DNA from: Lama guanicoe
Taxonomy: Eukaryota
Direction: 5' to 3'
Assembly: GCA_013239625.1 (NCBI GenBank)
Contig: MU053559.1
Coordinates: 806,001-870,000, forward strand
DNA length: 64,000 nt
Positions 1,836 to 64,000 of the stretch are shown piece after piece. A model generated the notes under the pieces. That model did no database searches and had not been told where the DNA came from. It saw only the letters and a program-made list of their open reading frames with translations. The first letter of the stretch is position 1; each line of letters opens with the position of its first letter. The position numbers and the translations under genes are program-made.

Positions 1836-3135
<1,300 letters not shown>

Positions 3136-3379: not shown

Positions 3380-6300
3380 TTTGTCAAGTTTTTGGTAAAA
3401 ATTGACAAGGAGATGTTAAAGTTTATATGACTATGCAAAGGACTTAGAGCACACAAAGCAAGGTATAGCATGGAGGAGTTATACTATGTAGTGCTAAGAC
3501 TTACTATAAAACTACAATGATTCAGATAGTGTGGTATTGATAGAAGTACAGACACATATATCAATGGAACAGAATAGAGAGTCCAGAAATAAACCCATGC
3601 ACATATGGTGAATTAGTTTATGGCAAAGGAGTCAAATATATACAATGCAAAAATGACAGTCTCTTCAATAAATGGTGTTGAGAAAACTCAACAGCCACGT
3701 GCAAAAGAACGAAAACTGGATCACTATCTATACCATACACAAAAGTTAACTCAAAGCGAATTAAAGACTTGAACATAAGACCAGAAACCATACAAGTCTT
3801 AGATGAAAACATCAGTGGTAAGCTCCTTGACATAAGTCTTGGAGATGAATTTTTGGATTTGACACAAAAGCAAAGGTAACAAAAGCAAAAATAAACAAGT
3901 GGGACTATATCAAACTAAAAAGTATATGCACAGCCAAAAAAACCTTCAACAAAATGACAAGGCAGCCTAATGAATGGGAAAAAATTTGCAAAACATGTAT
4001 CTGATAAGGGGTTAATATCCAAAATATATAAAGCAGTGATACAACTCAATAGCAAAAAAACTCCAAAGAGTCTGATTTAAAAATAGGCAGAGGATCTGAA
4101 TAGACTTTTCTCCAAAGAAGACATACAGATGGTCAACAGGTACGTAAAAAGGTACTTAACATCACTAATCATCAGGGAAATGCAAATCAAAACCACAATG
4201 AGATATCACCTCATACCTGTTAGAGTGGCTATTACCAAAAAGACAAGAACTAAGTGTTAGTGAGAATAGAGAAAGGGGAACCCTGATGTACTGCTGCTGG
4301 GAATGTAAATTAGTGCAGCCACTATGGAAAACAATACGGAGGATTCTCCAAAAATTAAAAACAGAACTCGTATATGATTCAGCTCTTCCACTTCTGGGTA
4401 TCTATCTGAAGAAAATGAAAACATTAAGTTGAAAACATATATACATCCCATGTTCACTGCAGCATTATTTATAATAGCAAATATATAGAATCAACCTAAA
4501 GTAAAGAAATCAAGCAAGACAAAATTATCAAACCACAAAAAGAAAAACAAAAAGAAAAAGAAAGGAACAAAGAAGAAATACAAAATCAACTGGAAACCAA
4601 GATTTAAAATGGCAATAAACCCACATCTGTAAATAATTACCATAACTGTCAATGGACTAAACGTTCCAATCAAAACACACAGAGTGGCAGATTGGATAAC
4701 AAAATAAGAGCCTACAATATGCTGCATACAAGAGACCCACTTTAGAGTGAAGGACACACAGAAATTGAAAGTGAAATCGAAATAGCAATAAAAAACCTCC
4801 CTACAAATAAAAGTCCAGGACCGGACAGCTTCACCCGGGAATTCTACCAAACATACAAAGAAGAACTCATACCAGTCCTTCTCAAACTCTTCCAGAATAT
4901 TGAAAAGGAGGAATACTCCCAAACTCATTCTATGAAGCCACCATCACCCTGATACCAAAACCAGGCAAAGACACTACAAAAAAAGAGAATTATAGGACAA
5001 TATCACTGATGAACATAGATGCAAAAATCCTCACCAAAATATTAGCAAATAGAATCAACAACACATAGAAAAGATTATACATCATGACCAAGTGGGGTTC
5101 ATCCCAGGGACACAAGGCTGGTTCAACATATGCAAATCAATCAATGTAATACATCACATCAACAAGAGAAAGGACAAAAACCACATGATCATCTCAATCG
5201 ATGCAGAAAAAGCATTTGATAAAATTCAACATCCATTTATGATAAAAACTCTCACCAAAGTGGGTATAGAGGGAACATATCTCAACATAATAAAAGCTAT
5301 ATATGACAAACCTACAGCCAGCATAGTACTCAACGGTGAAAACCTCAAAAGCTTCCCACTAAAATCTGGGACAAGACAAGGATGCCCATATCACCACTCC
5401 TACTCAACATAGTCTTGGAAGTACTAGCCACAACAGTCAGGCAAGAGAGAGAAATAAAACGGATCCAAATTGGAAAAGAAGAGGTAAAAGTGTCACTATA
5501 TGCTGATGACATGTTACTATATATAGAAAACCCTAAAAGGTCCACACAAAAGCTACTAGAGCTGATTGAAGAATTCAGCAAGTTAGCAGGTTACAAAATT
5601 AATGTTCAAAAATCAGTTGCATTTCTTTACACTAACGATAAATCAACAGAAAAAGAAAGTAAAGAAACAATCCCCTTTAAAATAGCACCCAAAGTAATAA
5701 AATATCTGGGAATAAATCTAACCAAGGAGGTGAAAGAATTATACACAGAAAACTATAAACCATTGATGAAGGAAATTAAAGAAGACTTTAAAAAATGGAA
5801 AGATATTCCATGCTCTTGGATTGGAAGAATCAATATTGTTAAAATGGTCACACTGCCCAAGGCAATCTACAGATTTAATGCAATCCCTATCCAATTACCC
5901 AGGACATATTTCACAGAACTAGAACAAATCATAATAAAATTTATATGGAACCATCAAAGACCTAGAATTGCTAAAGCATTACTGAAGAGAAAGAAAGAGG
6001 CTGGAGGAATAACTCTCCCAGACTTCAGACAATACTATAGAGCTACAGTCATCAAGACAGCATGGTATTGGTACCAAAACAGACATATAGACCAATGGAA
6101 CAGAATAGAGAGCCCAGAAATGAACCCACAAACTTTTGGTCAACTCATCTTCGACAAAGGAGGCAAGAATATACAATGGAATAAAGACAGTCTCTTCAGC
6201 AAATGGTGTTGGGAAAACTGGACAGCAGCATGTAAAACAATGAAGCTAGAACACACCCTTACACCATATACAAAAATCAACTCAAAATGGATTAAAGACT

Positions 6301-8190
6301 TAAACATAAGACAAGATACAATAAACCTCCTAGAGGAAAACATAGGCAAAACATTATCTGACATACATTTCAAAAATTTTCTCCTAGAAGAAATAAAAGC
6401 AAGAATAAACAAATGGGACCTAATGAAACTTACAAGCTTCTGCAGAGCAAAGGAAACCAGAAATAAAACAAGAAGAAAACCTACGGAATGGGAGAAAATT
6501 TTTGCAAGTGAAACCGACAAAGGCTTGATCTCCAAAATATATAAGCAGCTCATACGACTCAATAAGAAAAAAATAAACAACCCAATCCAAAAATGGGCAG
6601 AAGACCTAAACAAGCAATTCTCCAAGGAAGACATACAAATGATCAAAAAGCACATGAAAAAATGTTCAATATCACTAATTATCAGAGAAATGCAAATCAA
6701 AACTACAATGAGGTATCACCTCACACCAGTCAGAATGGCCGTCATTCAAAAATCCAAAAATGACAAATGCTGGAGAGGCTGTGGAGAAAGGGGAACCCTC
6801 CTACACTGCTGGTGGGAATGCAGTTTGGTGCAGCCACTATGGAAAACAGTGTGGAGATTCCTCAAAAGACTAGGAATAGACTTACCATATGACCCAGGAA
6901 TCCCACTCCTGGGCTTGTACCCAGAAGGAAATCTACTTCAGGATGACACCTGCACCCCAATGTTCATAGCAGCACTATTTACAATAGCCAAAACATGGAA
7001 ACAGCCTAAATGTCCATCAACAGGTGACTGGATAAAGAAGAGGTGGTATATTTATACAATGGAATACTACTCAGCCATAAAAACCGACAACATAATGCCA
7101 TTTGCAGCAACATGGATGCTCCTAGAGAATGTCATTCTAAGTGAAGTAAGCCAGAAAGAGAAAGAAAAATACCATATGAGATCGCTCATATGTGGAATCT
7201 AAAAAACAAAAACAAACAAACAAACAAAAACAAAGCATAAATACAGGACAGAAATAGACTCATGGACAGAGAATACAGACTTGTGGTTACCAGGGGGGTA
7301 GAGGGTGGGAAGGGATAGACTGGGATTTCAAAATTGTAGAATAGATAAACAAGATTATACTGTATAGCACAGGGAAATATATACAATATCTTATGGTAGC
7401 TCACAGAGAAAAAAATGTGACAATGGTATATATATGTTCACGTATAACTGAAAAAATGTGTTCTACACTGGAATTTGACACAACATTGTAAAATGATTAT
7501 AAATCAATTAAAAATGTTAAAAAAGAATTGAGAGGATGGAAAAAGATATTTCATGCAAATGGAAATGACAAGAAAGCAATACTCATATCAGACAAAATAG
7601 ATTTAAGGGCCATAAAGAAAGATAAAATAGAATCAACCTAAGCATTCATCAGTGGAAAATGGATAAAGAAAATGTGGTACATATGTACAATGGATTATTA
7701 TTCAGACATAGAAAGAAGGAAATCTTGCCATTTGCAACAATATGGATGAACCTTGAGGGCATTATGCTAAGTGAAATAAGTCAGACTAAGACAAATACCA
7801 TATGATCTCACTTATACATGGAATCTAAGAAAAACAAACAAAAAGTAGCTCATAGATACAGAGAACAGTTGGTGGTTGCCAGAGGCAGGAGTGGGTGGTG
7901 GGTGAAATAGGTGAGGGGATCAAAAGGTATGAACTTCCAGTTATAGAATGAATAAGTCATGGAGATGTAATACACAGCATGGTGTCTATAGTTAATGATA
8001 CTCTATTCCATATTTGAAAATTGCTAAGAAAGTAAATCTTGAAAGTTCTTATCACAAGAAAAAAATTTTGTAATTACGTATGGTAATGGGTGTTAGCTAG
8101 ACTTATTGTGCTGATCATTTCACAATATATACAATATTGAATCATCATGCTGTACACACAAAACTAATATAATGTTACATGTCAATAAAA
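3380..8190 (+). mobile_element. Older L1 (ORF2 3' part and 3'UTR) split by an insertion at 4500-7626
   Basis: Degraded ORF2 at 3380-4499 resumes at 7627; TSD ATAGAATCAACCTAA at 4485-4499 and 7627-7641. Confidence 0.8.
4771..7525 (+). mobile_element. Young 5'-truncated L1 with the RT and C-terminal part of ORF2 (606-aa ORF at 5382-7202)
   Basis: GTRQG, YADD RT motif, C-terminal CWRGCGE..HCWWEC; frameshifts upstream of 5390; 3'UTR and A tail. Confidence 0.95.
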
Positions 8191-16821: not shown

Positions 16822-17228
16822 NNNNNNNNNNNNNNNNNNNNNNNNNNNNNNNNNNNNNNNNNNNNNNNNNNNNNNNNNNNNNNNNNNNNNNNNNNNNNNN
16901 NNNNNNNNNNNNNNNNNNNNNNNNNNNNNNNNNNNNNNNNNNNNNNNNNNNNNNNNNNNNNNNNNNNNNNNNNNNNNNNNNNNNNNNNNNNNNNNNNNNN
17001 NNNNNNNNNNNNNNNNNNNNNNNNNNNNNNNNNNNNNNNNNNNNNNNNNNNNNNNNNNNNNNNNNNNNNNNNNNNNNNNNNNNNNNNNNNNNNNNNNNNN
17101 NNNNNNNNNNNNNNNNNNNNNNNNNNNNNNNNNNNNNNNNNNNNNNNNNNNNNNNNNNNNNNNNNNNNNNNNNNNNNNNNNNNNNNNNNNNNNNNNNNNN
17201 NNNNNNNNNNNNNNNNNNNNNNNNNNNN
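16822..17228. other. Assembly gap (407 N)
   Basis: Run of N. Confidence 1.
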
Positions 17229-22867: not shown

Positions 22868-23562
22868 TGAAGGGCAGTAGAATGTGTCACCCCAAAATAT
22901 GCCACTTTGGCTTAGGGATTATTTCGAGCTGAAGGCAATTGAGAAGAAGCAGGTACAAGAAAAGTTCTCTGCCCTCCCATTTGCCTAAAAGCAAGATATA
23001 AATTTTCAAAGGTGTCCCTCTTCTTCTCCCTACCAGGAAGGACAAAAGTTAATCACAGGAAGAGGGGAGAGCATAGCTCAAGTGGCAGAGTGTGTGCTTA
23101 GTATGTACCAGGTCCTGGGTTCAATCCCCAGTACCTCCATTAAAAATAATTAAGTAAACCTAATTACCTCCCCCCAAAAACAAAATTTAAAAACATTTTT
23201 AAAGGTTAATCATGGAAGACAACTCTAGACCCAATCAGCCTGGAGATGGCACCTACATAACAAACTTTACCAATTGGCCTCTATCTACCATTAGTCACCT
23301 CCCATATGTTTACCGTCCTGCAGTATGCTGCCCTTGGAAGCCTAAAACCACTTTCCTTTGTCCTGTCATTTCTCCATCTATATAAGCTGGAATTCTAAGC
23401 CACCACTTTGAGTTACTCATTTTTTCCTTGGGTATCTCCCAAAGATACATGAGATATACAAGTTAGTAAACTTGTTTTCTCTTATTAATTTGTCTTTTAC
23501 TAAAGGGGTTCTCACCAAGAACTTAGAAGGGTAAAAGGAAAATTATTTTTCCCTCCCCTACA
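22868..23562 (+). mobile_element. MER34-like solo LTR containing a SINE (about 23062-23200)
   Basis: TG..CACCCCAAAATATGCCACTTTGG...TTTTCCCTCCCCTACA; near-TSD AGGT/AAGT. Confidence 0.7.
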
Positions 23563-26431: not shown

Positions 26432-29175
26432 CCAAGGACCAAGACCAATGTGTATTCACGTGGGAAGGCCTTTGATATACATTGGCAGTACTCTCCCAGG
26501 GGTGATGAGAGTACGTTGGAGTTTCACACCAGTGAGTGGGTCAGGCTTTAGTGAGACTGCCCCTACCCTCTGCATACAGGTAAAGTCCTCTCGGTTAGAG
26601 AGAAGGTTAGGTCTCAATGGCTCTGTCCACAGTATCATCACCCCTTTGCCATCAGAGGTGGCTGGTAAACCCTGACAAAATTCAAGGGAAGGGTCTGGGA
26701 CCTCTGGGTGGATTCACAATAATCTATCCCTCTCGCAATCAATGAAAAACTTCTATGTCTTTGAACCCCACACCAAAAAGGAAGCCCAGCATCACACTGG
26801 ACTCTCTGGGAATGGGAGACAGAATGTGCCTCTCCTGGATGTCTTACTTGATCCTTTATATTAGCCAAACCACAAACAATGTCCTTTGAGTGGGGCGCAA
26901 ACCAAAAGACAGAGTAGGATGCTGTCTGGCAAGCTGAGGTGCATTTTCTGCTCCCTATCTTCAGGGTCCCCAAAGCCTAAACAACCCTGCTGAGCTACCA
27001 GTCTGTGTAACCGATGATGCTGCCTATTGGGGCCACTAGCAAAGGGAGGCAGCCTCCACTCGGAAAAGCCCCTTGGGGTACCGCCTTTGTAATCTTCCTT
27101 ACACAGCTACTAGCTACAGCCCCTTGGGAAAAGCAGCTATTAGCTTGCTATTGGGCCCTTGTCCAAACTGAACACCTGACCCCTGGAGGCCCTGCAAACT
27201 CTCCAGGCCTGACAGTCCCATTTGGAGGTAGGTCAATTCAGACTCAATCACCAGTGAGGTGGGAAGGACCCAACAAGCCTCGCCTGTCAAAAGGAAAGAG
27301 TATATTCAAGAGCATAGCTGGGCTGGCTCCAGCAGCATCTTGGCTTTATGTGAAAATAGGACAGCTAACTCTTTGGAGGAAAATTTATCTCCCATTTGGC
27401 AAACCATGGAGCAAGGTTGCTGGGCTTAATGGGGCCCTCAGTTCACAGATGATCCCTCAAGTGCCTGGACCTGATCCACTAATGACTGGGCTAAGGTGGA
27501 ATCTAATAGTTTCCACTGGGCTATGCAGCTGTTTGACCTTAGAATATTTTTTTTATTTAAATGGAGGTACTGGGGATTGAACCCAGGACCTCGTGCACGC
27601 ACTCTACCACTGAGCTATTCTCCCCACCACCTTAGCAAAATTTAGAATGGATGTAGGCGCTCCTCTCAGCAGGCAGAACTCAAGGCTATTCTTCTTACAA
27701 TTCTGGCCAATATTCCCTTTGATATTTATTAACTCTTGAGCTATTGCCAGTGTCCAGCTGTGCAGACTCCCACTTGGAAGACTACAGGCTGGGATTGGAC
27801 AGGCCTCTTTGGTATCATGGACTGTGGAAACAAATCACAGCTATTAATTGAATGGTCTGGGTCACCCACATAGGTGTCCATGGTAAGGGTCCATTCTCTG
27901 ATGACACTGACTGGAGTCAGGTTGCTATGGAGCCTTCAGTGCCCAGATTACTGCTATTGCTTTTCTTCATCCATCGTCCCACAAACATGTCAACACAGTC
28001 ATCATCATGGATTGGGCACAAATGACAAGACTCCACCTTTCTGATGCAGAGGCTGCCATTGCATGCCAAACTGTGACTCCTTCCAAAAGATGACCCACTG
28101 GGATGCACATAGCATGAAGTATGGGCCTGTCTGCTCCTGGCAAACCGCCTCACACCTTAAGAGCCTGCTCTCAGGGATTTCACCACTGTTGCACTATTGC
28201 CAACATTTTTTTCAGGTTGAACTGCTGCTGTTTCAGTCTGTTCAGCTGACTCCAGCCACACCATTGTGGCTCTTAGAATTCAGCTGTGTCAGGTTTTCAG
28301 CTTTCTGGACTATTTATTGGCAGCCTGAAAATGGTCCGCCTTTTACTGCAAAAGCTGTGTAATGATAGGCTGATGGTCAAGGTATTTGATAAGACCTCCA
28401 CACTCTCTACCATCTACCGGCATCTGGTATTGCTGAGTGATGGAATGACCTCCTCAAAAATGGACTCGAGATGGGTAGTTATAGCTCAATGGCAGACAGT
28501 GTGCTTGGCATTTGGGAGGTCCTGGGTTCAATCTCCAGTATCTCCACTTTAAAAAAAAATGTTAATGGATTCAAAAGGATTTCAGAATCTACCACTCTCA
28601 CCTCCACCTGGTCCACACACCCTAGTTAGGGAGTTTGGTCAATGACAATGTCTGTCCCCAGAGAGGAATCATCTCGCTTCAGCTGCACCCTGGGTAATTA
28701 ATGATCAGAACAAAAGGTGTTAGGGGTTAGATGGATGTATTTTGACAATTTGGGATCCTCTATTGAACATGCCTGGGTATAATCTTTCTTTCACCTAGCA
28801 AGCCCAGACTAGCCTGGCTGGTAACCCTCTGGGCGGCAGCCCAGCCAGAAGGGAGGCAGCCTAAGAGACTGACATTTAATTCTGGTTCAGCTACCTGGAT
28901 TGTTTGGTTGGACCGACACTGTTCTAGATCATAAAGATAATTATTATTTGGCTCGGTACACTGCTTACTATGTCCCCCTACAGTGACCCACATGGGCCAT
29001 TCAGATGAAAGGTCTGGGAACTGGTAGGAGATCACTGGGAGGTTGTGGGGAGGAGGTGAATTTATAGCTATTAGAACGGGCCATAATGATTTTGTGTCAG
29101 GAGAGGATGCACAACAACACAGAACCTGAAGAGGAAACACCTTAGACTCCAGGAGGTCCAGGAAAGGGAGGGACA
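26432..29175 (+). mobile_element. ERVL (class III) internal pol segment, decayed; SINEs at about 27545-27630 (-) and 28470-28560 (+)
   Basis: DQCVFTWEG..YT..L.QG, PDKIQG, FEWG, PWEKQLLACYWALVQTEHLT motifs. Confidence 0.8.
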
Positions 29176-30194: not shown

Positions 30195-30600
30195 GGGATT
30201 AGACTGAGGCCTTCATATAGGTGCCTTTATAAGGAGAAACATGTGGGAGAGGATATAGCTCAAGTGGTAGAGCACATGCTTAGCATGCACGAGGTCCTGG
30301 GTTCAATTCCCAGCCCTCCCTCTAAAAATAAATAAACCTAATTGCCCCCCCAACAAATTAATAAAAATAAACAAATTTTAAAAGGAGAAATCTCACAGAG
30401 TTTGCTCTCACTCTGTCTGCAATCCCCCTCTGCCCACGCACAAAGAGATCACCTGAAGACAGCAAGATGGTAGCCGCCTGCAGCCAAGAAGAGGGCTCTC
30501 ACCAAGACCAGACCTCAGCACCATGAGAAAAACAAATCTGTGTTGTTTAAGCCACCTAGACGAACGTATTTTGTTACAGCAGCCCGAGCTGACTAAGACA
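30195..30600 (+). mobile_element. MLT1A/MST-like LTR containing a SINE (about 30246-30380)
   Basis: Ends TTGTTTAAGCCACC..TATTTTGTTACAGCAGCCCGAGCTGACTAAGACA. Confidence 0.75.
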
Positions 30601-34237: not shown

Positions 34238-34325
34238 GGGAGGGCATAGCTCAGTGGTAGAGTGCATAGTTAGCATGCATGAGTTCCTGGGTTCAATACT
34301 CAGTACCCTCGTTAAAAATAAGAAT
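34238..34325 (+). mobile_element. tRNA-Ala-derived SINE
   Basis: GGGCATAGCTCAGTGGTAGAGTGCATAGTTAGCATGCATGAGTTCCTGGGTTCAATAC. Confidence 0.85.
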
Positions 34326-36708: not shown

Positions 36709-37010
36709 GGGTGGAGTATAGCTCAGCAGTAGAGCATACACTTGGCATGCACAAGGTCCTGGGCTCAATCCCCAGTATCTCCGTTAAAAAAAAGATTACC
36801 AGGAGAAGACACTGATGCCCAAAGTTGAGATAGCCTCCCCTATCGCTAGCTGTGTTAACTTGGGCCAAATAGTTTCTGTCTATGCCCCAGTTTTCCCCTC
36901 TATAAAATGGACATAACAACAGCACCTACTTCTCGAGGTCGTTATGAGATGAGTTAGCATATGTACTGTGTGTGTGTAACAGTGCTGGGCACATAGTAAA
37001 TATTATACGA
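36709..37010. mobile_element. tRNA-derived SINE (36709-36795, +) followed by a MIR fragment (about 36840-37010)
   Basis: A/B boxes; MIR core CAGTTTTCCCCTCTATAAAATGG..ATAACA..GTTATGAGATGAGTTA. Confidence 0.75.
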
Positions 37011-42360: not shown

Positions 42361-42859
42361 CACGAGGAAGGAGAAATGAACAAATCACTATCACAGTGGA
42401 GACGAATCTCTCCTTTCTCTGTAATAGGATAAACAGACAAAAAAGAGTACAAATTTTGTATAACACAGTTGACAACTGAACAATTAAATATTATTTTCGA
42501 ATTATACATGGAACATGTATTAAAAATTCACCAAGGACTAGGCCATGAGTCCCCTCAGATTTCCAGGAATGAGCTTCATGTAGACATATTTCTGACCACA
42601 GAACACTAAGGTTAGAAGTCTAGTAAAAAGGTAAACTTTCGTAAAATGAAGATGTACTTCCAAATAATTCATGGGCAAAAGAAAAATGATCAACTCTGAG
42701 AAAACACTTAGAACGTAATGAACCAAATCTTGTGGGTCTCAGAGTGAACTTTAAGACCTTAACGTTGATATGAGGTAAGAGGAAAGCCTGAAAAATAACG
42801 AACGAATCACCCAACTACATTCGGACAACCATCACTGACCATACAGAATTCCCCAACAC

Positions 42860-43300
42860 TCACCCTCCCCGGGTCCCCATCACCTCCACATCCCTCCGGC
42901 ACAGGGCACTGAGATCCTCTTGACAACAACTATCAAACCGCGGCTGAAAACCGCAGCCGCTTCCGGTCACCACCTCTAGCACCGCCCCTTCTCGGGGTTT
43001 GGGGCTTCGCCATGAGGGGCGTGGCTTTGCACATGCGCACAATCACATTAGAAGCCACCGCCAGCCAAGAGTCAACATGGAGTCATTACGGAGTCGGTGT
43101 TTTGGGGCATCTGGTGCCTCTCGGCCGCCGTAGTCAGGCGGGGAACATGGCCGCGCCCAGGTCGCGCTTCCCCACGGGGCACGCCATGTTGGAGGAATGT
43201 CCATTCCGTACAGAGGGTGAGGAAGCGTCTAAACTCACTTTGCAGAGCAGTGGAGCTGTCTCACAGGGGTGGGGACTTATCTCTGGGCGGGCTTCCTGGA
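42860..43300. promoter_or_regulatory. CpG-rich promoter of ZNF81, possibly bidirectional
   Basis: Most CpG-dense patch in the window; ETS/GABP CTTCCGGT 42960, GC box 42981, NRF1-like TGCACATGCGCA 43028, YY1-like AACATGGC(C)G at 43144 (+) and about 43182 (-). Confidence 0.75.
42864..42965 (-). other. ZNF81: Probable non-coding exon 1 of ZNF81 (5' end approximate)
   Basis: CpG-rich segment ending in the strong donor AGG|gtgagt at 42864/42863, upstream of the ATG exon. Confidence 0.65.
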
Positions 43301-60040: not shown

Positions 60041-63017
60041 CCATGGAGAAATAAGGACTCTAATGCAGAGATCCTGTACCCCTTCCCAAGAAACAATTCC
60101 TTGGGGCAAAAGAATGACAGCTTAAGACATGAAGTAATTGGAAGACTCTTCCACCAGTTTACTCTATTTGAGGAAAACACTAAAGGAAAGTATTCTAAAT
60201 AAATGAATACTAAATCAGAAGATAGATCTCAAAATAAGAGAGCAAAGCAGTGGCTAGCAAGGATTGCTGTGGCAAAATGCACACCCTCAGGTACACATTC
60301 AAATAGCTATAATTAAATCACGATAAATAAAGTCACTGAGGACTTTGAATGAAAATATTCAAGTTTTCTTGAAGCAGAATTGACTTAACCTAAGAAAAAT
60401 ATAGTCTTCAAATAAGCAGTTTAAGTTTTTCTAGAAAAATCCAGAAATAATACCGCTTATCTTGCTGAAGCAAATATGGGTGATAGAGCATCTTTCTCTG
60501 CAATCAAAGGTTCATTATATTCTGATCAAATAATAGAGAAAACAGAAATTAAATCATGCCTGTTAGAAAGGAAAAACTACATAACAGGACAGTTAGTAAA
60601 CATAAAAATTACCAAAATAATAAGGTTAGGGAGGAGGACAAAGCTGAATAGAAACTTCATTAAGCTACTGGGAAGAAGAAAAGAATAAAAGTTATATTTA
60701 GGAAATAGTAAAATTGATAATAAGGATAATATGATATAAAAAGATAAGATTATCATAATTATACAAATATAAATGGACTGAATCTCAAGACACAAATGTG
60801 GGATTAGGGCAAAAAAATACACTTACATACAGTTACAAGAAGTAGATCTTAAAGAGAAAATGCAAAATAAAAGTTTTAGACAAAGATAAACCAGGTTAGT
60901 GGCAGCAAAATGAAAGGAGCTGTGATGACGTACTTACCGAAGAAAATTCAAGGTCAAAAGCAGTCAACAAGGAAAACACATAGGGGCATTGCACAAAATG
61001 GACTAAGATATTTACTTTGGGATTCCTCTTCCCCCCCTTAAAAAAAACCCCACAAAACTACAACGAGCTATTTGTTTAAACTATTATAACATTTATTCTA
61101 TCTTTTGATAATAGCTGGAGTAGACAAAATGACAAAAATCAGAGTAAAGAAATGTTAATCATCAAACTACATTGAAAAGTCCTTATGCACCTAACAAAGA
61201 GTATAGTTTCTTCTCTCATATCCATAAAAGGTTTACAAAATTCAGTTGAGTAATCTGGGCCACAAAGAAAATCCTGAGTAATGTTTACAAATTCAGGTTC
61301 AATAGGCTACATTCTCTGATCATACTAAAATCATAATTACCAAAAAAAAAAGAAAGAAAAAATAACCAAACTATTTTAACCAGTTAGAAACTAAGAAATG
61401 TTCCTCAATAGCTATGATCAAAGGGAGAAATCAATTTTGACAATGCATCTTTCATACCAGAGTTTACGAGATACAGCTACATTTAAGGGAAAAAAAAGTA
61501 TATGCTCTCAAAACCTTTACTATTCAAAAGACTGGATCCTAATCAAGTTGGGAATTTGATTCAAGGGATTAGAAAAAGAACAAAACTAGGCAAACACAAT
61601 AAAAAGGAAACATAGAACAGAAAATCAAGAAGTGGCAATTAAAAATAAAAGCTTAAATAAATTAATTAAATAAATATAAACTTAGGGAATATAAATAAAA
61701 TAAAAAGCTAATCCTTTCAAATAGTTAATTATATGGATTAGTCCCTGGGAAATCTGATCAAATTGAAAAGAAAGGAAAAAATATAATATCAGTAATCAAA
61801 AAAAGAAGATATTGCACCAGGTAGGCAGTGAATTAAATAATTAATACATGCATTATTGTGGAATATGAGGTATATGTCTTGAGTAACATGTTTAAATATT
61901 TAGGTAAAATATGTGAGTCCCTGGGGAAAAAAAGTTATTGTGAAAATTAATGAAAAAAATCCATTAGGGACCAGTGAGTATAGAAAGAACAGGAAGAGTA
62001 ATTCAAGTCTACCATTTGAGACATACCAACACCCACTGGCAGCATTACTGGACACACCTCCTCTGGCACTGGAGGCTTGGCTGGGGCTGGCAAAGGCAGA
62101 TGTGGCAGAGGACCCAGTTCTCTCCTGGCAACCCTGCAGGTGTGAAATGGGCACAACCAGACAGGGGCTCAATGGGCAAAGCTGGCTGGAAAGGGAAGAC
62201 CCAGAGCAAGGTGGTAGCAGGAGAGCAGATGTGATGGGGCAGGTCTAGCGGGAGACAGACGGACCCGGATTGGACTGGCAGGGGCCAAGGCTGACAGAAA
62301 GGGTTGGGACCTCATGGTATGGTAAAGAGTGGACCAAGATGGGTGGGGGCAGGGGCACGACTGCCGTGACAACTTGAATTCTCAGCATTCCAAAGCAGAA
62401 TCATCAGGGAGGTCGTCTCACACTCACCTATTCCCCCATCCCAACATTTTCCCAGCACCTCTGGCCTGGGGAGTATTAACAATTACACAGAAGTCGGTCA
62501 AAGTACACTCATCAGGTGCCAATTACATACCTGATGGCCTGGGATGGGGGACTGTGGGGAACAAGGGTCACTGGCACCTAAGGTCACGTCTCCCCTGACA
62601 GAAAAGGACTCACCAAGCAGCCCAGCCACCAACTACCACCAACTGTAGTTGAAGTTTTGGAACTGGGTCCTGTGGCCAGAGAGACAAGCTGAAGGGCTAT
62701 CAGGGGATATTAAAATCTCTTGTTCTTCTAAAATTTGTAAATATAACTCTGAACAGTGGGAGATGAGGGCAGGGCAGATCCCCTGGCCTCGCCCAGGTTC
62801 AGGATAATAAGGGGGATAGAAGAACGGACAGAAATTTTGAGGACCACTCTCCCAAGGAGGCATAGACAGAGACAGGAGACCAAACAGTGAACAGAGAAGC
62901 ACCGAGAAACTCTGAGATGCCCGAGAAAAAAGTGGTGAGAGAAAGAGGTATGTAAAGAATTCACGGAATGCCACCCTTGCAGAGGGTGTTAAGTACAGGA
63001 CCTCAGTTGAGCAGGGC

Positions 63018-63164
63018 TCAGTTGTCCACTTTGGAGCGCAGGTCGCTGGTGAGTGGGTCATGCTGGATGGTCTGGTGAAGCATCAGGGCCAGCAGCCCTG
63101 CCCGATTCATCATGGCTGTGCGCACCTTCTGCTCCAGCCCCATCAGCTCTTCCAGCTTGTGCAG
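63018..63164 (-). CDS. CXXC1-like: CXXC1 (CFP1)-like paralog, terminal coding exon
   Basis: Acceptor ctcacag|; encodes LHKLEELMGLEQKVRTAMMNRAGLLALMLHQTIQHDPLTSDLRSKVDN*, compared with recalled CXXC1 WYKLDELFEQERNVRTAMTNRAGLLALMLHQTIQHDPLTTDLRSSADR*. Confidence 0.88.
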   Translation of the reverse strand: MHKLEELMGLEQKVRTAMMNRAGLLALMLHQTIQHDPLTSDLRSKVDN

Positions 63165-63240
63165 CTGTGAGCGGGTGAGTGTGAGAGGGGGCTTCTAGAC
63201 CCAATCCCGCCCCTCAGCCCCACTCAGCCTCATAGCCTAC

Positions 63241-63393
63241 CGTGCGCACACGCTCTAGGTCCACCTCGGCACGTCTCAGCTTCTCCCAGCAGTAATGGAG
63301 GCTGCACAGGTGTTTGGGGAGGCGACAGAAATCACCAGTGGACTCAAAGACATTTTGCATTAGTGGGCAACCACACACCTCATCCTCAGGTAC
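63241..63393 (-). CDS. CXXC1-like: CXXC1 (CFP1)-like paralog, penultimate coding exon
   Basis: 153 nt with cag| acceptor and |gtaggc donor; encodes VPEDEVCGCPLMQNVFESTGDFCRLPKHLCSLHYCWEKLRRAEVDLERVRT, compared with recalled CXXC1 VPADEVCGCPLVRDVFELTGDFCRLPKRQCNRHYCWEKLRRAEVDLERVRV. Confidence 0.88.
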
Positions 63394-63399
63394 CTGCGG

Positions 63400-64000
63400 G
63401 CAAGAATGAAGGATGATGGAGGAGGGTGGCAATGGAGGGTGAAAAGGCAGGCAAGATGAGAGGAAGAAGGGAAAGGAGGGCAGTCTGGCATGTAGGAGAG
63501 GAATGGGGAGGGACCTGGCAGGGGGGATGAGAGGAACTCAGTGATTAAGTAAAGGAGAGGGGGCAAAACGGGGGTGATCAAGCACGAAGGATGGAAGAAG
63601 AAGTTAAGCAGGGATGTAGGAATGGAGGTGATCCAGCAGGAAGGGCAGAAGAACAGAAAGAGGTCAAAGAGGAAGGAGAAGAAGGATGGAGGGGAGGTCT
63701 GACAGGGAGAATTAGATGAATAGGGACTGGTAAGACACTGGAGGAGGCGAGGGATGAAATTGGAGGGTGGGAGGTACAGGGACTGATTAAACATGGAGGG
63801 AGAAGGGATTAAGGAGATGATAGGCAGGGAGAAGGTGATTGGGGCAGTGAGGCAGGGAGAATAGGAATGGAGGGAAGTCAGAAAAAGAGAAGAGAGGAAT
63901 TGAGGGTGGCCATGCAGGGAGGAGGGGAGGAAGGTGGGGTGGTCAGGCAGGGGCTGGGAAAAGAACAGAGGATGGGCAAGCGAGGAGATGGGAACAAGAG
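63400..64000. repeat. Purine-rich (GA) low-complexity intronic tract
   Basis: About 600 nt strongly G/A-rich on the + strand. Confidence 0.75.

Follow-up and report, generated by a model that had tools for sequence, protein, structure and literature searches.

A CXXC1 paralog without PHD and CXXC domains, beside ZNF81 in the guanaco and present in other placental mammals

CFP1, the product of CXXC1, is a subunit of the SET1A/B complexes and directs them to CpG islands. In this study, a second, partial CXXC1 gene was recognised next to ZNF81 in the guanaco, and sequence comparisons show its anatomy, its synteny, its membership of a single placental clade, the constraint on it and the retention of the residues of its SET1-interaction zinc finger (SID). 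On the leading reading of these features, which is plausible though not quite probable, the paralog would be a form of CFP1 that binds SET1A/B without CpG-island targeting, that is, a swap-in subunit. Published work is cited by PMC number.

Exons, lesions and neighbourhood of the paralog

The window, a stretch of 64,000 nucleotides, ends within the paralog, which lies on its minus strand. The exon 15 homolog of CXXC1 is the last coding exon (window 63018..63164, 147 nt) and terminates in TGA. It is preceded by a 76-nt GT-AG intron at the position of CXXC1 intron 14 (63165..63240), by the exon 14 homolog (63241..63393, 153 nt) and by the 3' portion of a C/T-rich homolog of intron 13 (63394..64000). 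The exon 14 homolog carries zinc motif II (C-x6-C-x2-H-x2-W) of the RbBP5-interacting region (PMC7145517), and the acceptor on its 5' side carries a pyrimidine tract. Spliced in silico, the two exons read in frame through 99 stop-free codons, so that the exons, the intron and the stop are all as an earlier note on this DNA had described them; the Cys and His residues of these two exons are likewise retained, as it had stated. Searching the genome with this stretch returned two matches, namely, itself and a locus on contig C6341 (75% DNA identity, E 1.4e-59). The latter is the canonical CXXC1 (15 exons, 661 aa, PHD and CXXC present), whose exons 14 and 15 measure 153 and 147 nt, the same as in the paralog. 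The likeness is thus far beyond chance and a second copy exists: the exon lengths agree with CXXC1, as does the stop position, which had been claimed, and the copy in the window is not the sole CXXC1 of the species.

To the right of the window edge, 38 kb were added, and the remainder of the paralog was located on the minus strand of contig C1178 (on which the window spans 806001-870000). Exon 13 (870443-870347), exon 12 (870709-870660), exon 11 (871139-871029), exon 10 (871448-871241) and exon 9 (871963-871794) complete the series; exons 9-15 were thus all found, open and with canonical AG/GT ends, and their lengths equal those of CXXC1, save exon 9, which is 15 nt shorter. Lesions in the upstream exons, which the earlier note had considered, are absent from this series and present further up: broken exon 8 (872196-872090, usable ATG at 872131) has lost its AG and carries a 1-nt deletion that shifts the frame, dead exon 7 (872588-872342) has two stops and a 1-nt insertion, and exon 6 remains as a trace. 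CXXC1 homology begins about 16 nt into intron 5, downstream of the CXXC exon, and intron 5 and 6 sequence is still alignable. When ten CXXC1 5' segments were compared with the region, two, both spanning introns 5/6, outscored all 40 shuffles; none of the CXXC1 promoter and exon 1-5 segments rose above shuffles upstream of the paralog with two scoring matrices, and the alignment of exon 5, the CXXC exon, was no better than shuffles. In a genome search with full-length CXXC1, seven of the 33 listed matches fell on C1178, all inside residues 222-659; no match on this contig covered the PHD, and none was significant within 40 kb upstream. The claim of an intact second CXXC1 with PHD and CXXC therefore fails, since exons 1-5 are undetectable and "intact" is true only of the 3' half.

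Other identities were tried and set aside. A retrocopy was ruled out because introns stand at CXXC1 positions between all kept exons, and this bears out the view of the earlier note that the copy is an old, intron-keeping duplicate made at the DNA level. For exons 9-15, an unprocessed pseudogene was rejected on their open frame and on a dN/dS well below 1, although a recent decay in camelids may lie hidden; the remnants of exons 6-8 are disabled. A full-length CFP1 was rejected because PHD and CXXC are missing; the SID residues and the PF12269 region are present.

For translation, two routes to a SID-containing protein are predicted. The first starts at the second ATG of exon 8 and yields 325 aa; the second starts further upstream, in an exon of 63 nt that the alpaca database model also includes (candidate ATG exon, C1178 873380-873318, minus strand) and yields 332 aa. 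Upstream ATGs precede the usable ATG of exon 8. From the ancestral ATG of exon 8, translation would now enter a short ORF in another frame, which ends in a TGA overlapping the usable ATG (L003:4128-4190, minus strand) and is a possible translational brake. Furthermore, 160 nt upstream of the true exon 12 there is an acceptor-like stretch that resembles a degraded beginning of this exon (L003:2805-2870, minus strand) and perhaps arose by local duplication.

Some 1.9 kb upstream of exon 8, a small stretch rich in CpG (C1178 about 874230-874069, minus strand) is a candidate promoter or first exon of the paralog. Its CpG o/e is about 0.7, a donor is present, and it contains a motif that we take to be ETS-type; a horse model carries homologous sequence (72% aa, E 1e-8). 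The stretch L003:6001-6261 (minus strand) of this candidate promoter weakly resembles the CpG island at window 42.5-43.3 kb, a probable ZNF81 promoter (window 42846-43093, minus strand; 5/200 shuffles equally high), and may have been borrowed from the KRAB-ZNF type. Separately, window 43138-43219 (minus strand) within that island matches the CXXC1 promoter (L007:3353-3430) along some 80 nt, with a score that none of 200 shuffles reached; either shared motifs, presumably YY1-like, or true homology would account for the match. At the other end of the gene, the site aligned to the CXXC1 AATAAA is eroded (window 62735..62740, minus strand), and the first AATAAA past the stop, at 1.9 kb, is the candidate poly(A) signal (window 61092..61097, minus strand).

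As a synteny marker outside the paralog, the KRAB-A exon of ZNF81 lies at window 2498..2626 on the minus strand and shares 95-98% identity with the ZNF81 entries of dolphin, horse and human, which confirms the adjoining gene named in the earlier note. On C1178, a TIMP gene is located at 970-971 kb, followed by an Ets exon at 921.5 kb, the paralog at 869-872 kb and the KRAB exon of ZNF81 at 808.5 kb; judging by gene order, we take the Ets exon to be ELK1. Two quick searches of this contig, by prefoldin family and by motif scan, returned no UXT. In dolphin, horseshoe bat and dromedary, ZNF81-named and CXXC1-like entries are on records of equal length, which places them on one chromosome. Judged from these neighbours, we infer that the paralog is X-linked. 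A published table of Xp11.23 lists TIMP1, CFP, ELK1, UXT, CXXC1P1 and ZNF81 (PMC3467283), and the TIMP1-ELK1-copy-ZNF81 order matches this position of CXXC1P1, which the earlier note had put near ZNF81. Judged by synteny, the paralog would be the ortholog of human CXXC1P1. The two share this neighbourhood; in contrast, the human copy is named a pseudogene, whereas the guanaco paralog and those of many orders have an open frame.

Elsewhere in the window, Rfam tRNA hits with A-rich tails at 1699-1771, 23067-23139, 27562-27624, 30249-30319, 34240-34311 and 36713-36783 look like copies of one tRNA-derived SINE and not like tRNA genes. A piece at 5053-7202, which we take to be LINE-1 ORF2-like, holds a 620-codon open frame that suggests a fairly young insertion; other such fragments are present, and an N gap lies at 16822-17228.

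Orthologs, constraint and transcription

The gene is known to databases under an automatic name, and it is real, conserved and uncharacterised. A protein search with exon 10 returned the alpaca entry first at 99%, followed by camels at 96%. The family was listed from two protein searches (all 79 matches of the first, the best 120 of 713 of the second) together with cluster listings. The matches listed are mostly models of 300-400 aa, most of them named "CXXC1-like" and with PF12269 alone; they come from sloth, shrew, desman, several bat families, pangolin, cats, dogs, seals, mustelids, horse, rhino, pig, camelids, toothed and baleen whales, rabbit, hare, colugo, lemurs, galagos and tarsier. 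Rather than specific to one lineage, as had been supposed in the earlier note, the gene is common to several placental orders. The RefSeq/UniProt models named "CXXC-type zinc finger protein 1-like" in alpaca (XP_031528325.1), pig (XP_020935496.1), horse (XP_070114736.1) and sloth (XP_037676726.1) are the same gene; their automatic names are misleading because the CXXC finger is missing. All named models are computational, and their N-termini disagree. In the alpaca model, 26 extra codons from intron 9 replace the normal exon 9-10 junction and may hide a lesion in that assembly. PF12269 was the only Pfam domain in the six ortholog models scanned (E about 1e-93, full length), with PF00628 (PHD) and PF02008 (CXXC) absent in 6/6, whereas gibbon CXXC1 contains PF12269, CXXC and PHD. 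Among the matches listed, no intact ape, monkey, rodent, ruminant or afrotherian entry was seen, which is weak evidence because the searches were word-based. Two entries, a tamarin piece of 140 aa and a yak model, show signs of degeneration, so loss recurs. A metagenome scan gave 74 loci with best-segment identities of 33-74%, none recognisably the mammalian ortholog. The literature searched, with most subscription journals outside it, gave no description of the gene. In many placentals, the family is very probably a protein-coding gene.

In a quick tree of 284 shared columns, all 31 paralog rows fell on one side and 20 CXXC1 rows on the other with support of 100; Eptesicus (trimming motif), tamarin, yak and several partial models were omitted from it. 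In a reduced 39-row tree, the paralog clade sits among therian CXXC1 (support 90). This tree is compatible with an origin before or after the marsupial split (p-AU 0.55), although the first tree favoured a later origin. As read from these sequences, the paralog predates the sloth-boreoeutherian split.

The paralog and the CXXC1 of the same genome share 71% aa identity over 325 codons. Pairwise dN/dS between them was 0.195 (NG86), 0.286 (LWL85) and 0.094 (YN00), and a GY94 fit gave 0.10-0.12, with 0.5 rejected at p about 1e-16; the Biopython ML value was 0.61, with a dS of 0.2 at odds with the other methods. A ratio near 1, which the earlier note had considered, is thus not what was found (0.09-0.29 in the pairwise comparison with CXXC1). 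Each of these ratios combines the paralog branch with that of CXXC1, which has hardly changed, and dS is perhaps inflated by high GC3. Because CXXC1 is nearly frozen (0/284 differences between guanaco and sloth), the paralog's own dN/dS may be about double; its constraint may be relaxed but purifying, with a ratio below 1. At codon positions 1 and 2, identity to CXXC1 is 84-86% in exons 9-15 vs 63% and 73% in dead exon 7, a control weakened by the greater divergence of its position 3 as well. In a neutral simulation with indels, the frame stayed open in 0/1000 runs at 0.15 substitutions/site.

For residue comparisons, 39 paralog rows were used, consisting of 38 database models and guanaco, with partial and degenerate models left out. 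Conservation is at least 95% at 149/284 columns, and the guanaco protein is 76-85% identical to the open frames of rabbit, sloth, dog, horse and pig. Of these rows, 38-39 retain the zinc ligands of motifs I and II. C375, K389, Y390 and the four SID cysteines are kept in all 39 sequences (as in the cited papers, residue numbers refer to the 656-aa form for C375, K389 and Y390 and to the 660-aa form for H495). The paralog and CXXC1/CFP1 are alike in exon 9-15 structure, PF12269, SID finger and zinc ligands. In contrast, CXXC1 has the PHD (PF00628), the CXXC (PF02008) and an acidic region, while the paralog is X-linked, evolves much faster and has H495 and 21 other conserved positions altered. 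Yeast Spp1/Cps40 resembles the paralog in having SID and RID without a CXXC (PMC7145517); it differs in that Spp1 retains its PHD finger, whereas the paralog is without both readers.

Transcription, which the earlier note had thought plausible in the germ line, is hinted at by one RNA run among the 24 runs listed, judged from word share and label only: this run, labelled reproductive system, contained 0.23 of the sampled words, where exons alone predict 0.22-0.24. Eight further RNA or RNA-guessed runs had word shares of 0.05-0.14. An exact 343-aa horse protein is recorded from both Logan and NCBI and spans 7/7 junctions checked, while other Logan calls read into introns; this points to a spliced RNA source, and the horse protein likely derives from spliced mRNA.

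Folds of the Camelus ferus ortholog had mean pLDDT values of 58.8 and 67.9. With the ortholog fold, Foldseek returned nothing at E <= 0.001 (the Cfp1 RID crystal 6VHF ranked 19, E 2.4) and VIA returned generic coiled coils (best Z 8.2); by sequence, no solved structure matched the paralog. Residues 185-204 of P0167 matched UBZ and Sgf11 fingers by fold, over short stretches and weakly (E 2-4), probably through a CxxC-x11-H-x3-C finger; although not significant, the likeness is of interest given the part of CFP1 in H2Bub-dependent methylation. In a SETD1-type locus, the n-SET exon ends at a U12-type-like motif (L010:1634-1640), which we take to fit the U12-type AT-AC donor consensus.

Possible function and competing readings

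According to the swap-in reading, a DNA segment of CXXC1 that reaches from the beginning of intron 5 to the 3' UTR would have been duplicated in an early mammal, inserted into the X chromosome between ELK1 and ZNF81, and become a separate gene. Its predicted product is the C-terminal half of CFP1, comprising the SET1-interaction zinc finger, the coiled coil and the RbBP5-facing zinc region, and would have neither the H3K4me3-reading PHD nor the CpG-reading CXXC. The protein would occupy the CFP1 slot on the n-SET region of SETD1A/B, and the resulting complex would still trimethylate H3K4. Freed from CpG-island tethering, the SET1 complex would follow other cues, and the swap might be confined to one cell type, for which the germ line is the likeliest candidate. 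As reported, K389A/Y390A abolishes co-precipitation of SETD1A, whereas mutation of PHD and CXXC does not (PMC5603731). Against the swap-in reading, in ES cells PHD/CXXC-mutant CFP1 does not restore CpG-island H3K4me3 (PMC5603731), and H495 is replaced in the paralog, as described below. CFP1 without PHD1 or CXXC supports H3K4me3 in vitro on H2Bub chromatin, whereas CFP1 without PHD2 fails (PMC7261165), and Cxxc1-null thymocytes are rescued by CFP1 361-656 (PMC4879243). The retained SID residues, together with the activity of CFP1 fragments without readers, are what suggest a subunit that would activate SET1A/B and not aim it. The engineered fragments 361-656 and 348-660 correspond closely in extent to the natural paralog; unlike it, they are laboratory constructs of CXXC1, and the paralog has its own fixed substitutions.

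Whichever way the protein works, the camelid copy itself could be decaying or newly dead while the family is real elsewhere; this is compatible with either mechanism and somewhat unlikely in our estimate, and we consider the camelid copy probably live. Frameshifts and stops sever an N-terminal part common to the sloth, whale, pig, horse and bat models, the exon-8 acceptor is lost, ATGs precede the usable one and the CXXC1-type AATAAA is eroded. Moreover, 15/284 residues differ from Camelus ferus, whereas CXXC1 shows 0/284 against sloth, and six differ from the alpaca RefSeq model outside three model-artefact columns. The tamarin and yak entries suggest recurrent loss, and at 0.01 substitutions/site the frame survived in 39% of simulations, so a recent camelid death would be invisible. 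However, exons 9-15 and their splice sites are intact and are open in the Camelus models, none of the zinc ligands is lost, both predicted routes (325 and 332 aa) give a full SID-containing protein, and the word share of one RNA run (0.23) is that expected from exons alone.

Less likely still, the paralog might act as a decoy: it would bind SETD1A/B via its intact SID but contact RbBP5 poorly, so that CFP1 would be displaced and promoters in CpG islands would carry less H3K4me3. Here, the H495 position is central. It is His in 88/88 vertebrate CXXC1 rows, mostly near-copies from fish, amphibians and reptiles, and is replaced in 38 of the 39 paralog rows (Q 28, K 8, R 2, H 1; Gln in guanaco). 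In the human protein, H495A loses RbBP5 association and H3K4me3 rescue (PMC7145517). H495 is among 22 CXXC1-conserved positions changed across the paralog clade, and reader-mutant CFP1 binds SETD1A yet leaves CpG-island H3K4me3 unrestored (PMC5603731). In contrast, of 74 non-vertebrate CFP1-like loci examined, 40 yielded the motif, and only 12 of these have His at this position, with K and Q among the others; His is thus not generally required, and some loci without it carry a PHD. The zinc ligands of motifs I and II are all kept (38-39/39 rows), and the substitution in H495A is Ala, not Gln.

It is improbable that the paralog serves independently of COMPASS as a meiotic adaptor bridging PRDM9 to the axis protein IHO1. 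In two-hybrid assays, CXXC1 348-660, nearly the paralog span, binds the PRDM9 KRAB via the SID, and PHD2 suffices for IHO1 binding (PMC5688218); weak co-precipitation of CXXC1 and PRDM9 was seen in spermatocytes (PMC6221362). However, the human copy is named a pseudogene and no rodent entry is among the matches listed, although both use PRDM9. X-linked genes are also silenced from pachytene on. Furthermore, dog and foxes keep the paralog although dog PRDM9 is a pseudogene, no significant co-IP was reported from testis (both in PMC5688218), and loss of mouse Cxxc1 left recombination unaffected (PMC6221362). Finally, that the copy is a pseudogene in every species and the models are prediction artefacts, as the name CXXC1P1 and the computational, discordant N-termini might suggest, is very improbable and already largely refuted by the open frames across orders, the 149 conserved columns and a dN/dS far below 1.

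Extended beyond the guanaco, the swap-in reading becomes more tentative: in most placentals, an X-linked CFP1-type subunit without readers would redirect or dampen H3K4me3 off CpG islands in germ cells, and humans, mice and cattle would have lost it independently, for which reason COMPASS work in these species would treat CFP1 as single-copy. Laboratories have engineered CFP1 without its aiming domains, and a natural, conserved form of this kind is relevant to the debated separability of the targeting role of CFP1 from its activating role. Dog, pig, horse and rabbit are workable species in this respect. If the reading is true, SET1 complexes would vary in composition across many mammals, and the human "pseudogene" CXXC1P1 would become a probable lost gene.
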